Origin: a virus
Taxonomy: Duplodnaviria > Heunggongvirae > Uroviricota > Caudoviricetes
Reading direction: 5' to 3' (one strand)
IMG/VR virus record: IMGVR_UViG_2713896783_000005
DNA: 4,701 nucleotides
Made by a program: the position numbers and the translations under genes. Position 1 is the stretch's first letter; every line of letters starts with the position of its first letter. The notes under the pieces were generated by a model. That model did no database searches, was not told the DNA's origin, and saw nothing but the letters and a program-made list of their open reading frames with translations. Of the stretch, positions 1 through 4,701 are shown one piece after another.

Positions 1-207
1 CAGGCTCTGTTACCGGCGATCGAAAAGGCAATGCCGCCTCTGCTGGTGGCCCGTATGCGCAGTCACAGCTCTGAATATTACCGTGAGATCGTCGAACGGA
101 GGGATCGGCTGGTGAAAGATGTGGATGATTTTGTCGCAGCGGCGATCGCCTGGGGCACCCTGACTAACAGTGGGGGTCAGCCTGGTAATGCTGTTGTCGT
201 GCATTGA
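1..207 (+). CDS. 3' end of upstream gene (5'-truncated by window edge); hypothetical protein, possibly a cII-like or other early regulatory protein
   Basis: Frame 1 is open from base 1 to TGA at 205-207 (...EYYREIVERRDRLVKDVDDFVAAAIAWGTLTNSGGQPGNAVVVH); E. coli-like codons (ctg, ccg, gcg); same strand as the rest of the operon. Function not recognisable from this fragment. Confidence 0.45.
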   Translation, partial: QALLPAIEKAMPPLLVARMRSHSSEYYREIVERRDRLVKDVDDFVAAAIAWGTLTNSGGQPGNAVVVH

Positions 208-275
208 CCAACAATATTCATGCCGGATTTCTTCCGGATGTTCGAGGGTAAAGTTCGGTATCAGATGAGGTGAGT

Positions 276-420
276 ATGGCTAATGCCTGGCTCAGATTGT
301 GGCATGACATGCCAAATGATCCCAAATGGCGAACCATTGCCAGGGTCTCAGGACAGCCAATCGCAACAGTGATGGCGGTGTATATCCACCTTCTGGTGAG
401 TGCGTCACGAAATGTCACGA
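276..420 (+). CDS. 5' fragment of an O-like replication initiator gene (first copy), cut off by the N gap
   Basis: ATG at 276 with the same RBS context as the full gene at 543; encodes MANAWLRLWHDMPNDPKWRTIARVSGQPIATVMAVYIHLLVSASRNVT, identical in protein to the start of the 543-1586 CDS; runs into N at 421. Confidence 0.4.
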
Positions 421-470
421 NNNNNNNNNNNNNNNNNNNNNNNNNNNNNNNNNNNNNNNNNNNNNNNNNN
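421..470. other. Assembly/scaffold gap (50 N)
   Basis: Run of exactly 50 n characters, flanked by near-identical sequence (204-420 vs 471-687). Confidence 0.95.
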
Positions 471-542
471 TTGACCAACAATATTCATGCCGGATTTCTT
501 CCGGATGTTCGAGGGTAAAGTTCGGTATCAGAAGAGGTGAGT

Positions 543-1586
543 ATGGCTAATGCCTGGCTCAGATTGTGGCATGACATGCCAAATGACCCCAAGTGGCGAA
601 CGATTGCCAGGGTATCAGGACAGCCAATCGCAACAGTGATGGCAGTGTATATCCATCTTCTGGTGAGCGCGTCACGAAATGTCACGACATGTCACGGCGT
701 GTCACTACGTGGTCACATTGATGTCACGACGGAAGATTTAGCAAGTGCGCTTGATGTGACGGAAGACGTAATTGATTCAATTTTGCATGCAATGCAGGGG
801 CGGGTTCTGGATGGTGACCTTATTTCCGGATGGGAAAAACGTCAGGTGCTGAAAGAGGACAATGGTAACGTTTCGCAAACGGCAAAATCCCCGGCAGAGC
901 GCAAGAGAGCGCAGCGGGAGCGGGAAAAGCTGCGGAAACATAATGCTGATTGTCACGATGAGTCACGACGTGTCACGCATCTGTCACGACAAGTCACGAC
1001 AGATAAAGATACAGATAAAGATACAGATACAGAATTAAACCCCACACATAACGCGCGCGAGAGTATTCCGACCAGTGAGTCGAATGGTGCGCCGTTGCAG
1101 ACAGCCGAACCTGAATACCTGGACGGCCTGAGCGAACCGATCGGGAAATTTTCGATGACTACTGTCTGGCAGCCGTCGCCGGATTTTCGACAACGGGCAG
1201 CAGTGTGGGGTATGGCTCTGCCTGAGCCGGAATTTACACCTGCTGAGCTTGCCGCATTCCGGGATTACTGGATGGCGGAGGGGAAGGTTTTCACGCAGGT
1301 TCAGTGGGAGCAGAAATTTGCCCGCCACGTGCAGCACGTCAGGGCACAGGTAAAACCAGTCAGCAAGGGGGGAAGCCATGCAGCATCAGGTGGCACGGCA
1401 TCACGGGCAGTTCAGGAAATCCGGGCTGCACGCGAACAGTGGGAACGTGACAACGGATTTATCAGCAACGGAAACGGCCTGGAAGCTGTGGGAGCTCATG
1501 GGGGAGGTGTATTCGAACCGCTGGACTCAGAAGAACGGGGCCGCACCTTCGAAGCTCTGGATTGCCCAGATTGGTGCGATGACTGA
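543..1586 (+). CDS. Phage replication initiation protein (lambda O analogue) with N-terminal HTH-like domain and C-terminal DnaT-like ssDNA-binding domain
   Basis: ATG at 543 preceded by AAGAGG (532-537); the track's GTG at 537 lacks an RBS. The segment IGKFSMTTVWQPSPDFRQRAAVWGMALPEPEFTPAELAAFRDYWMAEGKVFTQVQWEQKFARHVQ closely matches my recollection of the E. coli DnaT C-terminal domain ([64 protein letters not shown]). Iteron arrays lie inside the gene as in lambda O. Stop TGA 1584-1586. Confidence 0.85.
   Translation: MANAWLRLWHDMPNDPKWRTIARVSGQPIATVMAVYIHLLVSASRNVTTCHGVSLRGHIDVTTEDLASALDVTEDVIDSILHAMQGRVLDGDLISGWEKRQVLKEDNGNVSQTAKSPAERKRAQREREKLRKHNADCHDESRRVTHLSRQVTTDKDTDKDTDTELNPTHNARESIPTSESNGAPLQTAEPEYLDGLSEPIGKFSMTTVWQPSPDFRQRAAVWGMALPEPEFTPAELAAFRDYWMAEGKVFTQVQWEQKFARHVQHVRAQVKPVSKGGSHAASGGTASRAVQEIRAAREQWERDNGFISNGNGLEAVGAHGGGVFEPLDSEERGRTFEALDCPDWCDD
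671..732 (+). repeat. Iteron array 1: six GTCAC(G) repeats at 10-11 bp spacing (putative initiator binding sites, origin)
   Basis: GTCAC begins at 671, 681, 691, 701, 712 and 723, about one helical turn apart. The first two repeats are also present in the upstream duplicate at 404-418. Confidence 0.6.
952..1000 (+). repeat. Iteron array 2: five GTCACG repeats at 10-11 bp spacing
   Basis: GTCACG begins at 952, 962, 972, 983 and 993; same motif and phasing as array 1. Confidence 0.6.
1001..1032 (+). repeat. A-rich tandem repeat (GATAAAGATACA x2 plus GATACA) directly after iteron array 2; possible DNA-unwinding element, encodes a DKDTDKDTDTE linker
   Basis: 12-bp unit at 1002-1013 and 1014-1025, partial unit at 1026-1031; its position next to the iterons mirrors the AT-rich region of the lambda origin. 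Confidence 0.5.
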
Positions 1587-2040
1587 ACAGCAAATCCGTC
1601 TGGTGTGCCGTCAGTGCATGGACCGCTGCCGGGCGGGTGAAACGTGGCCCCCGGACCTGGCTGAGTTTGTTGCGCTGATTTCGGAGAGTGGGGCAAATCC
1701 ATTTGGTCTTACGGTGGATGCCGTGATGGAAGAGTACCGGCGCTGGCGCAATGAATCCTGGCGATACGACGGGAGTGATAAATACCCGTGGCCACAGCCT
1801 GTGCTGTACCACATCTGCCTCGAAATGCGTACCAGAGGGATTGAGCGCCAGATGACGCAAGGTGAGTTAAAACGACTTGCGGAACGGCAACTGACGAAAT
1901 GGGCAAAGCATGTTGGTAACGGGATGAGTGTTCCGCCAGTGCGACGACAACTGGAAGGGGCGAAACACCCGCAAGGGCCAACGCCAATTGAACGGCTGAA
2001 ACAGGAATACGAACGCCGGAAGGCAGCTGGTTTTATTTGA
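1378..2040 (+). CDS. Replication protein P-like (DnaB helicase loader); start uncertain (alternatives ATG 1498 or ATG 1579)
   Basis: Resembles lambda P as I recall it: WPPDLAEFVALI vs LPSPGQFVAWC, KYPWPQPVLYHICLEMR vs SYPWKSNAHYWLVTNLY, and a basic C-terminal tail. ATG 1378 has a G-rich SD (AAGGGGGG, 1365-1372) but overlaps the O frame by 209 nt. Stop TGA 2038-2040. Confidence 0.7.
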   Translation: MQHQVARHHGQFRKSGLHANSGNVTTDLSATETAWKLWELMGEVYSNRWTQKNGAAPSKLWIAQIGAMTEQQIRLVCRQCMDRCRAGETWPPDLAEFVALISESGANPFGLTVDAVMEEYRRWRNESWRYDGSDKYPWPQPVLYHICLEMRTRGIERQMTQGELKRLAERQLTKWAKHVGNGMSVPPVRRQLEGAKHPQGPTPIERLKQEYERRKAAGFI

Positions 2041-2073
2041 ATCTGAGAAACGATTTTGTCGGAGGAAATATTA

Positions 2074-2790
2074 ATGGAAACCGTATTTGACGCACTGAAA
2101 GCACTGAAAAAAGCCTCTTCACAGGTAGTGGCATCGCGCCTTGGAATCAGCCGCGAAGATGCTGTCAACGAACTGTGGAAACTGAAGCGCCGTGGTGAAG
2201 CGGATAACAAGGGGTCGATGTGGTGGCTGACTCAGACTGGTGAAAGTGAACCAGTGTCACCGGTACCGAAAGTGACAGCGCAAATGCTGACTGAGGCGAT
2301 TGAACATCATGGCCCACAAACGGCGGATGAGCTGGCACTGATGTTCGGGATTACCTCCCGCCGGGCGAATTCATCACTGGCCATGGCAATCAGCAAAGGG
2401 CGTCTGATTCGCGTGAATCAGGGCGGTAAATTTCGGTACTGCATACCGGGCGCTGATTTACCGGCAGAGCCGAAAGCCGCATCCATAACGGAAACGGATG
2501 GTAAAGCCTTTCCTCAGCCAGCAGGTGTTGCGTTACCAGTCGGGGAAGCGGAAACACAGGAAGAAATAAAAACGGAAAGTGTGGCGGTCACAGTGCAGTC
2601 ACAGCCGTCGTTCACCAGAAAGCATCCGGATGGTCTGATTTTACCATCGCTGCATGTGGCTAACCGCGAGCTGCGCCGGGCAAAAGGTCAGGTTCAGAAG
2701 TGGGAGCGAGTCTGCGCCGCGCTGCGGGAGCTGAACAAGTGCCGGGATATTCTCCGGGATATTACCGCCACCAGAGAACAGCAGCGGTGA
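2074..2790 (+). CDS. Hypothetical prophage protein with two tandem winged-helix-like modules (possibly DUF1627-like)
   Basis: ATG 2074 preceded by GGAGG (2061-2065) at 8 nt; the track's start at 2056 is a TTG with no RBS. Two similar segments ([12 protein letters not shown]...[20 protein letters not shown] and [46 protein letters not shown]) look like wHTH folds. Family name is from memory only. Confidence 0.7.
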
Positions 2791-3104
2791 GTGGGTGGAA
2801 GACGTGGTGCCGGGCGGAAATCATGATACTCCGGCAGTGTGCGGGAACGATGAAGGTAAAAAGCGTTGGCGCACTTATCGGACGAACTGAAGCGGCAGTG
2901 AGAACGAAGGCACGGGAGCTGGGCATCAGCATGATGTTACGTGGTGATTTTCACCCGTCGGCAAAATATTCTCAGCGTGATATTGAGCTGGCGCGGCAAC
3001 TGCATCAGAGAGGCATGCAAAGAAGGGAAATTGCCAGAAAATTAGGCATGCCGCTGCGCATAGTGAATAACTACGTTTATTTCGACAGGAGGGTGTCTGC
3101 GTGA
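2787..3104 (+). CDS. Small DNA-binding protein with two tandem GcrA-N-terminal-like HTH modules; start uncertain (GTG 2787, or ATG 2823/2850)
   Basis: Two repeats of the pattern W/Y-x-x-x-E/D-I-x-x-L...G-x-x-x-x-E-I-A/V...LG ([11 protein letters not shown]...[17 protein letters not shown] and [27 protein letters not shown]), resembling the GcrA N-terminal domain as I recall it. GTG 2787 overlaps the upstream TGA (2788-2790) as GTGA. The track's 2700 start would overlap the upstream gene by 90 nt and is rejected. Confidence 0.55.
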
Positions 3105-3328
3105 AAATCCTGTATCAGGATTACGGCCCGGTGGGGCAGGTGGTTATCAGCAGTACTGTAATGGAGTTTCGGAAGCATAACCGTGTGGTGGATGCTGTGC
3201 TGTTAACCTGTCCGGGGATATCGGCGAGTCGTGCAGGTGTGTTTATTATGAAGACGAAATTATATGGCAGTAAGGCGTGGATAAAGAAGGCGTATCGTGT
3301 AGCGTTGCAGGAGGTTAACAGTGAGTGA
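3101..3328 (+). CDS. Hypothetical small basic protein (75 aa)
   Basis: GTG 3101 preceded by AGGAGG (3087-3092) at 8 nt and overlapping the upstream stop as GTGA (3101-3104); about 11 K/R vs 5 D/E; no family recognised. Confidence 0.5.
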   Translation: MKILYQDYGPVGQVVISSTVMEFRKHNRVVDAVLLTCPGISASRAGVFIMKTKLYGSKAWIKKAYRVALQEVNSE

Positions 3329-3632
3329 AATTAAAGAAATGCCGGTAGTTCGTGACGGATATGGCTACTGGACACATCCTGAATATGAAAAATTCTGTGA
3401 TGGTCGGGAATATATTTCAACGGAAGAGTTTAACGCCTGGATGGAGGAAAATAATCTTCAATACGTCCTCTGCTTCAGAGATGAAGGATGTGCTGACCTT
3501 GATGCGTGTGATGCTGATATTTCTGCATGGGAACCGGAACGACCAGAGGGCGATGGCTGGTTTATTGGTTCCATTCATGATACGGAAGATGGCCCGGTTT
3601 GTGTCTGGTTGCGAAATAAGGCTGAAGCATAA
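3321..3632 (+). CDS. Hypothetical strongly acidic protein (103 aa)
   Basis: GTG 3321 preceded by AGGAGG (3309-3314) at 6 nt; overlaps the upstream gene by 8 nt; about 25 D/E vs 8 K/R by my count, Trp/Cys-containing; stop TAA 3630-3632. Confidence 0.6.
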   Translation: MSEIKEMPVVRDGYGYWTHPEYEKFCDGREYISTEEFNAWMEENNLQYVLCFRDEGCADLDACDADISAWEPERPEGDGWFIGSIHDTEDGPVCVWLRNKAEA

Positions 3633-3731
3633 AGGCGATAAACCAACTAACAACTAAATACTGAAGATTTAAATCAGAAACGATTTTTATTAAATCCTTA
3701 ACCGGAGGGATTCCTGCACCCTCAGAACATC

Positions 3732-3759
3732 AGGAGGCCGCCCGAAAGGGCGGTAAGAA
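3732..3759 (+). promoter_or_regulatory. Structured translation-initiation region: AGGAGG, then a CCGCCC-GAAA-GGGCGG hairpin, then 6 nt to ATG 3760
   Basis: Perfect 6-bp GC stem (3738-3743 with 3748-3753) closed by a GAAA tetraloop; consensus SD AGGAGG at 3732-3737 lies 22 nt from the ATG in linear sequence but about 6 nt if the hairpin forms. Confidence 0.35.
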
Positions 3760-3978
3760 ATGAAACATTATTTAGAAAAAAATTACCCACGAAAGAGCAG
3801 AACAACAGAGTTTCTGTTTTTCATTCTGTTTATAGTGTTGATGATACCGATATCCCCGCTATTACTGGTCTGGATAATTGGAAGGACATTTGAACCAGTT
3901 ATTGAGCTATATACCGATGTGACATGGGAATCATTCAGCGCACTGCACAATAAAATTAATCCGTATAAGGAAAACTGA
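3760..3978 (+). CDS. Small single-pass membrane protein (72 aa), AT-rich moron-like gene
   Basis: ATG 3760; hydrophobic segment FLFFILFIVLMIPISPLLLVWIIG flanked by a basic N-terminus (KNYPRKSR); rare codons (ata, aga, agg, cta, tta) and low GC contrast with neighbours; preceded by a 127-bp AT-rich non-coding stretch. Confidence 0.6.
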   Translation: MKHYLEKNYPRKSRTTEFLFFILFIVLMIPISPLLLVWIIGRTFEPVIELYTDVTWESFSALHNKINPYKEN

Positions 3979-3979
3979 T

Positions 3980-4537
3980 ATGAGCACTATTACCAGAGAA
4001 CGCGCGGAGATTAAATCATACATCACAGGCTTCCTGAGCGACTCGGCGCACGATAACAAGTCTTCAGACAGCCTGCTGGCTAATGTGTTTCGTATCGCGC
4101 TGGCATCACTGGAAGCAGAGCCGATAGCAATGGTAGTGCCTGATGAAATGGATTTGCTTACCTGCCATCTCGACGGTGTAACTAAAACATATGCTGATGG
4201 CTGGAACGCCTGCCGCGTCGCCATGCTTCAGGCCGGAAACTTTCGGGAAAATAAGAATTCGTCAACCAACAATTTTCGGGAAATCTCGGAAACGTCAACC
4301 AGATCTCCGATAACTCTGGATGGCTGGATAAGCTGTACTGAGCGAATGCCTGAAAAGAGCCAGAACGTGCTTATTTCGATGAATATCGATAGCGAGGCTG
4401 GGCCATTAATATATTCCGCACGCTATCTCGGAGGCACGTTCCGGCGCGGAGGTATAGCAGTTAGTCCGGGTAATGATCTTAGGCAAGCAACCCACTGGAT
4501 GTCGCTACCAGAACCGCCGCAGGAGGTGAATCAATGA
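3980..4537 (+). CDS. Prophage protein with DUF551-like C-terminal domain
   Basis: ATG 3980 one nt after the upstream stop, with AAGGA (3967-3971) upstream; C-terminal segment DGWISCTERMPEKSQNVLISM...ATHWMSLPEPP matches my recollection of the DUF551 signature (W...LP...HWMPLPEPP). Stop TGA 4535-4537. Confidence 0.7.
   Translation: MSTITRERAEIKSYITGFLSDSAHDNKSSDSLLANVFRIALASLEAEPIAMVVPDEMDLLTCHLDGVTKTYADGWNACRVAMLQAGNFRENKNSSTNNFREISETSTRSPITLDGWISCTERMPEKSQNVLISMNIDSEAGPLIYSARYLGGTFRRGGIAVSPGNDLRQATHWMSLPEPPQEVNQ
4237..4302 (+). repeat. In-frame imperfect 33-bp tandem duplication inside the DUF551-like gene (encodes NFRENKNSSTN / NFREISETSTR)
   Basis: TTTCGGGAAA at 4241-4250 and 4274-4283, and CGTCAACCA at 4260-4268 and 4293-4301, both 33 bp apart; located at the junction between the N-terminal region and the DUF551-like domain. 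Confidence 0.55.
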
Positions 4538-4617
4538 CCTGGCCTGAAGCATTCACAACGGTAGGAATTGCGATGGCGGTGGCGCTGGTGGTGTATTCGA
4601 TTTGCCGCTGGGGATAA
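4534..4617 (+). CDS. Candidate 27-aa hydrophobic microprotein (MTWPEAFTTVGIAMAVALVVYSICRWG), not in the ORF track
   Basis: ATG 4534 overlaps the upstream stop as ATGA; consensus AGGAGG at 4521-4526 sits 7 nt upstream; single hydrophobic stretch long enough for a short TM helix; stop TAA 4615-4617. Confidence 0.35.
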   Translation: MTWPEAFTTVGIAMAVALVVYSICRWG

Positions 4618-4701
4618 AAACGGTTTGCGGGAAAAGGATAGTTAAGTAGAATTGCTGCGGGTGCTTGAGGCTATCTGCCTCGGGCATGAACACCAACGGC
4701 A

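Follow-up and report, generated by a model that had tools for sequence, protein, structure and literature searches.

Our analyses indicate that the partial gene duplication seen around the scaffold gap of this sequence is very probably false and arose from short-read assembly and scaffolding, with no counterpart in the structure of the genome. The window, that is, the whole 4,701-nt stretch of prophage DNA that was analysed, contains a single run of N (50 N, 421-470, a scaffold gap), and the two sequences flanking it were traced to different prophages of the same finished Escherichia coli O157:H7 chromosomes. The tandem feature is not real; what was observed in the letters is real, and its cause is ordinary.

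Two prophage alleles around one gap

Direct ungapped alignment of 204-420 with 471-687 gave 8 mismatches in 217 bp, so that the co-linearity described in the original prediction was exact in every detail, and a repeat search of the window returned the same pair as a family (D1, 96% identity). Such similarity is far beyond chance. The mismatches fall at 266/533, 320/587, 326/593, 335/602, 347/614, 377/644, 389/656 and 401/668. The first of them (T at 266, A at 533) immediately precedes the GAGG Shine-Dalgarno motif, at a distance of 10 nt from the ATG, while the seven located 3′ of the ATG (276/543) are third-position, synonymous changes (D, K, T, V, A, H and S codons). The first copy (204-420, plus strand) covers the intergenic region, the ribosome binding site and, from the start of a replication gene, 48 codons plus 1 nt, and carries the allele that we call A, with the signature 266T to 401T. 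The second copy (471-687, plus strand), whose start reads TTGACCAACAAT, carries allele B and is the one in its true context. The edges of the repeat coincide with the contig ends, since copy 1 stops at 420, where the N run begins, and copy 2 starts at 471, right after it; these edges are thus contig ends and represent no biological boundaries. The left piece breaks off behind two GTCACG units (404-419) of an iteron-like array, corresponding to the first two units of the array at 671-728, in agreement with the statement that the gap breaks inside an iteron array.

To locate both pieces, nucleotide queries comprising window positions 1-420 and 471-1600 were run against 5,426 complete E. coli genomes. 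The left query matched TR01 at 1490232-1490651 on the plus strand (locus A) and the right query matched the same chromosome at 2104647-2105776 on the minus strand (locus B), both at 100%. Matches of 100% to both pieces occurred in the same O157:H7 chromosomes but at separate loci, which in TR01 and Sakai sit on opposite strands at a distance of about 0.6 Mb, and the same split was found in more than 20 further finished O157 chromosomes. The Sakai record names the two prophages Sp6 (locus A) and Sp11 (locus B): window 1-420 is identical to Sp6 at 1545932-1546351 and window 471-4701 is identical to the minus strand of Sp11 from 2198559 (100% in both cases). The locus A prophage adjoins potC and carries RacR/YdaS-type immunity genes, while that of locus B carries LexA-type/Cro immunity genes. 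An exact-substring test placed the end of the left contig (1-420, plus strand) only in the Sp6-type prophage and the right contig (471-4701, plus strand; 0 mismatches in 4,231 bp) only in the Sp11-type prophage. In these gap-free reference genomes each copy is present once, at its own locus. The two sequences are therefore real paralogous alleles and not sequencing errors, and the scaffold was joined across a repeat shared by related prophages, both as originally proposed. Errors of a collapsed consensus were also considered and rejected, since both alleles match distinct loci of single finished chromosomes exactly.

Finished O157 chromosomes differ in how far apart the Sp6-type and Sp11-type loci lie and in whether the two share a strand (examples are NZ_CP033605.1, NZ_CP018241.1 and NZ_CP022689.1). 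In TR01 the loci are on opposite strands and 614 kb apart, whereas strain 319 and CDC#03-98 have both on the same strand, at distances of 266 kb and 48 kb, respectively. This variability is consistent with known prophage-flanked inversions.

The co-occurrence of the alleles also bears on the origin of the DNA. A mixed or contaminated culture, with the alleles contributed by two strains carrying one prophage each, could in principle put two alleles of one segment in the same assembly, but the chance that this happened here is close to negligible: both alleles, together with a third copy described below that defines one of the forks, are found at 100% within single finished O157:H7 chromosomes, so that no second strain is needed.

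The other alternative, already raised in the original prediction, was a genuine tandem duplication of about 267 bp within one prophage, reaching from the ydaT stop codon to the first iterons, with its junction hidden by the gap. The geometry would allow it, as a 267-bp unit at 204-470 followed by 471-737 fits if the 50 hidden bases resembled 688-737. We concatenated the two 217-bp copies (A217+B217) and compared the product with the 5,426 complete genomes, in which a real tandem would give a match at 100% spanning at least 434 bp. None of the 5,426 genomes carried the A-then-B arrangement at 99% identity or higher; all the top places spanned just 218 bp, indicating that both halves of the query fall on one single copy. 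Besides, an exact-protein look-up found the intact B-type protein in 5,382 blocks, with a single copy in an Sp11-type context, and no second one, in 10 out of 10 sampled assemblies, and it returned no record for the open reading frame that spans the gap (276-518). A new tandem duplication begins with identical copies, but copy 1 differs from copy 2 by the Sp6/Sp14 alleles of two other prophages, matched exactly at 8 out of 8 variable sites, and these differences are not private to the locus. In addition, both edges of the repeat are contig ends and both are predicted by the paralogue forks presented below. On these grounds the tandem duplication was rejected and its probability is very low.

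Paralogue forks and the probable assembly path

A region of 3 kb that begins at ydaT and ends at the DUF1627 gene is about 90% identical in Sp6 and Sp11, and the two prophages are exactly the same from window position -11 to 265 (277 bp, including bases 1-203); at -12, Sp6 has T and Sp11 has A. Position 266 (plus strand) is the fork base, the first to split Sp6 and Sp14 (T) from Sp11 (A). Since Sp6 and Sp11 are identical up to that point, only 266-420 of the left piece is foreign to Sp11. The suggestion that 1-420 came from a different prophage than 471-4701 thus applies to 266-420, and it does not extend to 1-265.

The contig end at 420 led us to predict a third paralogue, which was then found as Sakai Sp14. 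A hybrid query made of allele A (340-420) and allele B (688-770) matched at 100% at 2.61 Mb of TR01, which corresponds to Sp14, in the same chromosomes. Like Sp11, Sp14 has a LexA-type/Cro region, but a different one. Sp14 differs from the left piece (1-420) at base 174 only and matches 204-420 at 100%, while Sp6 and Sp14 are the same over 175-420 and separate at 421, where Sp6 has A and both Sp14 and Sp11 have C. This second fork coincides with the stop of the left contig. Altogether, bases 1-173 and 175-265 are common to Sp6, Sp11 and Sp14, base 174 to Sp6 and Sp11, and 266-420 to Sp6 and Sp14. Given that every base of 1-420 is found in at least two of these prophages, it is more accurate to see the left piece as a multi-copy repeat path that was collapsed than as part of another prophage. 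As to the proposed check for several lambdoid prophages with related initiator genes, Sp6, Sp11 and Sp14 are all present in the same finished O157:H7 chromosomes.

We also examined other Sakai prophages. The fourth place reported for 1-420 corresponds to Sp12, which has only 1-137 in common with the window (L019 15907-16043, 95% identity), with a longest exact run of 47 nt and no 63-mer shared with the window; it was therefore rejected as another source of the boundary at 204. Past window position 137, Sp12 carries an unrelated replication gene pair, which places a mosaic boundary inside the ydaT gene. Sp8 has a different replication module and gave no match to the window. No sequence boundary at 203/204 was found in any paralogue examined.

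De Bruijn graphs were built from the TR01 copies, and again from four Sakai prophage regions, on both strands. Among the k values tried, only k=63 produced an Sp6/Sp14 node that was exactly 204-420 and an Sp11 (B) branch that began at the equivalent of 204, that is, at window 471; the node end at 420 did not vary with k. Because no paralogue shows a boundary at 203/204, the start of the right contig is explained only by the k-mer offset from the fork at 266. It follows from the k=63 graph, with its node at 204-420 and its B branch from 471, that the apparent repeat consists of the two alternative branches of one fork written in series.

These observations can be arranged into a probable series of events. 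The source is very probably an E. coli O157:H7-type genome with at least three lambdoid prophages (those of Sakai being Sp6, Sp11 and Sp14), whose ydaT and replication gene modules are about 90-99% identical. In the assembly graph, the sequence common to Sp6 and Sp11 (-11 to 265) splits at 266, one branch being that of Sp6/Sp14 and the other that of Sp11. The left contig would have run through the common sequence into the Sp6/Sp14 branch, which has two copies, and halted at 420 because Sp6 and Sp14 diverge at 421, a 1:1 fork. We would guess that it joined the Sp6/Sp14 branch through a preference for the branch with higher coverage. The Sp11 branch would have been emitted as a contig of its own, starting k-1 = 62 nt ahead of 533, the first base private to it. 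Such a lead of 62 nt points to a short-read de Bruijn assembler with k=63, a value read from that single coordinate. The scaffolder would then have joined the two contigs with a fixed spacer of 50 N despite their 217-bp homologous overlap, and the spacer would have taken its fixed length because the expected gap was not positive. The link was probably based on read pairs anchored in the collapsed 277-bp common stretch. Both branches of one fork would hence appear in series.

One detail goes against a pure k=63 unitig, namely that the right contig crosses a 101-bp stretch shared by Sp11 and Sp14 at which such a unitig would break, so the assembler must have resolved short repeats. Read lengths between about 100 and 250 nt would fit, as the 101-bp repeat was crossed while the repeats of 246-277 bp were not resolved. 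According to previous work, the repetitive and paralogous prophage sequence of O157 is beyond the resolution of short reads (PMC5359411).

Once 204-470 is deleted, the window shortens to 4,434 bp, and this sequence matches Sp11 exactly over its whole length in TR01, Sakai, CP051816 and one draft contig. This result also weighs on a further reading, according to which the prophage is a real hybrid, Sp6 on the left and Sp11 on the right, generated by homologous recombination or inversion, with the duplication as a local artefact at a true junction. Sp6 and Sp11 are inverted relative to each other and offer the 277-bp identical stretch and about 3 kb at 90% identity as substrate, inversions between homologous O157 prophages are documented (PMC8991562, citing Iguchi 2006), and finished strains differ in where the two loci lie relative to each other and on which strands. 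Nothing in the window requires a hybrid, however: positions 1-265 are the same in both prophages, no Sp6-specific base is present in the window upstream of the common stretch, removal of 204-470 alone gives perfect parental Sp11, and a crossover by itself cannot yield two copies. We consider such a hybrid improbable. The same low probability applies to its specific form, a crossover in the 277-bp identical stretch that would produce a chromosomal inversion of about 0.6 Mb and leave the duplicated stub as a local artefact.

What separates these situations from a false copy within an otherwise correct scaffold lies upstream of window base 1. If the left contig reaches Sp6-specific DNA, the scaffold may be chimeric or, less likely, represent a real hybrid prophage; if it reaches Sp11-specific DNA, the scaffold may be correct except for a stub from the wrong branch; and if it ends at base 1, it may be a 420-bp contig made of repeat only. 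Base 1 directly follows an Sp14-specific SNP, so that a graph node starts there at any k, a hint that the window could be a complete small scaffold. At the right end of the window (4701), located in the conserved hok-like region, no fork was found among Sp6, Sp11, Sp12 and Sp14.

The replication gene and its repeats

The DNA of the window belongs to the early-right region of a lambdoid prophage, with its genes in this order: the end of a YdaT-family gene, the gene for a replication protein of 347 aa, a lambda-P-like gene, a DUF1627 gene and small genes up to the hok-like region. The 3′ end of the YdaT-family gene occupies 1-207 on the plus strand (stop codon at 205-207; PF06254 was assigned on the full-length gene in related loci). 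The replication gene, in the position of lambda O, is complete at 543-1586 (plus strand) and is followed by the lambda-P-like gene at 1579-2040 (plus strand, PF06992). A Pfam scan of the 347-aa protein detected only a DnaT DNA-binding domain (PF17948, amino acids 203-269, 62.6 bits) and no match to the lambda O family (Phage_rep_O). The protein may be regarded as a putative initiator, a label that derives from the position of its gene and from the repeats within it.

Two iteron-like arrays lie inside this gene, both with a spacing of 10-11 nt. The first (671-728, plus strand) contains six GTCAC(G/T) units separated by 10, 10, 10, 11 and 11 nt, and the second (952-998, plus strand) contains five GTCACG units and is followed by AT-rich repeat sequence up to 1045. 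The latter corresponds to a 12-nt tandem repeat, GATAAAGATACA, located 3′ of the second array at 1005-1045 (plus strand, 68% AT). GTCACG was counted 13 times against 2.06 expected.

Comparison of the full replication genes of Sp6 and Sp11 revealed 32 codons with synonymous and 28 with non-synonymous differences. Base 421 falls on the second position of codon 49, which encodes Lys (AAA) in Sp6 and Thr (ACA) in Sp11 and Sp14 and constitutes the first amino-acid difference between the Sp6 and Sp11 paralogues. The claim that all coding differences are synonymous therefore held for the seven changes in the overlap and not as a gene-wide pattern; because the overlap ends just one base short of the first change that is non-synonymous, the all-synonymous pattern was partly an ascertainment effect. 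In the same way, purifying selection was correct in substance but overstated by the partial view. The first 48 codons are far more constrained than the remainder of the gene.

Other sequence elements were noted. Both copies contain a perfect 15-nt palindrome, TGGCATGACATGCCA, within the conserved beginning of the replication gene (300-314 and 567-581). Further downstream, at 3728-3762, a GC-rich hairpin (GCCGCCC GAAA GGGCGG) separates an AGGAGG motif from the start codon (ATG at 3760) of a small DUF4014-family gene.

Consequences and comparison with known systems

The paralogous prophage modules of O157:H7 have long been known, and the duplication has no biological import. The sequence serves instead as a worked example of how near-identical prophages give a draft scaffold a false, partial copy of a gene; here this is the truncated 48-codon "initiator" at 276-420. 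For annotation, gene counts, recombination calls and inference of selection, positions 204-470 should be removed, which leaves the exact Sp11 sequence. Linkage at the scaffold level across the 421-470 gap is not to be trusted.

The closest relatives of the window are the early-right replication modules of Sakai Sp6, Sp11 and Sp14, which match its pieces at 100%; they differ in that the two copies stand in series only in this scaffold and in no finished genome. A more distant likeness is found in the O/P replication module of phage lambda, where the iterons of ori, four of 19 bp, lie inside the O gene. As in lambda, iteron-like repeats at helical spacing (10-11 bp) are placed within the gene in the O position, an AT-rich stretch is located 3′ of the second array and a P-like gene lies next door. 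In contrast, the protein of the window lacks a Pfam match to lambda O and has only a DnaT DNA-binding domain, and its repeats are short GTCACG units distributed in two arrays instead of four 19-bp iterons. The region has a lambda-ori-like layout within the gene of a protein from outside the lambda O family, and it may be considered a putative origin.

Regarding the duplication itself, the nearest class is that of the false duplications at contig or gap boundaries of draft assemblies, as described for vertebrates (PMC9516828). The two versions in the window are paralogues in different prophages of a haploid genome and not haplotypes of a diploid. In both cases, two diverged versions of one sequence stand in series around a gap, and the assembler misses that they are alternatives, which results in a false partial gene copy.
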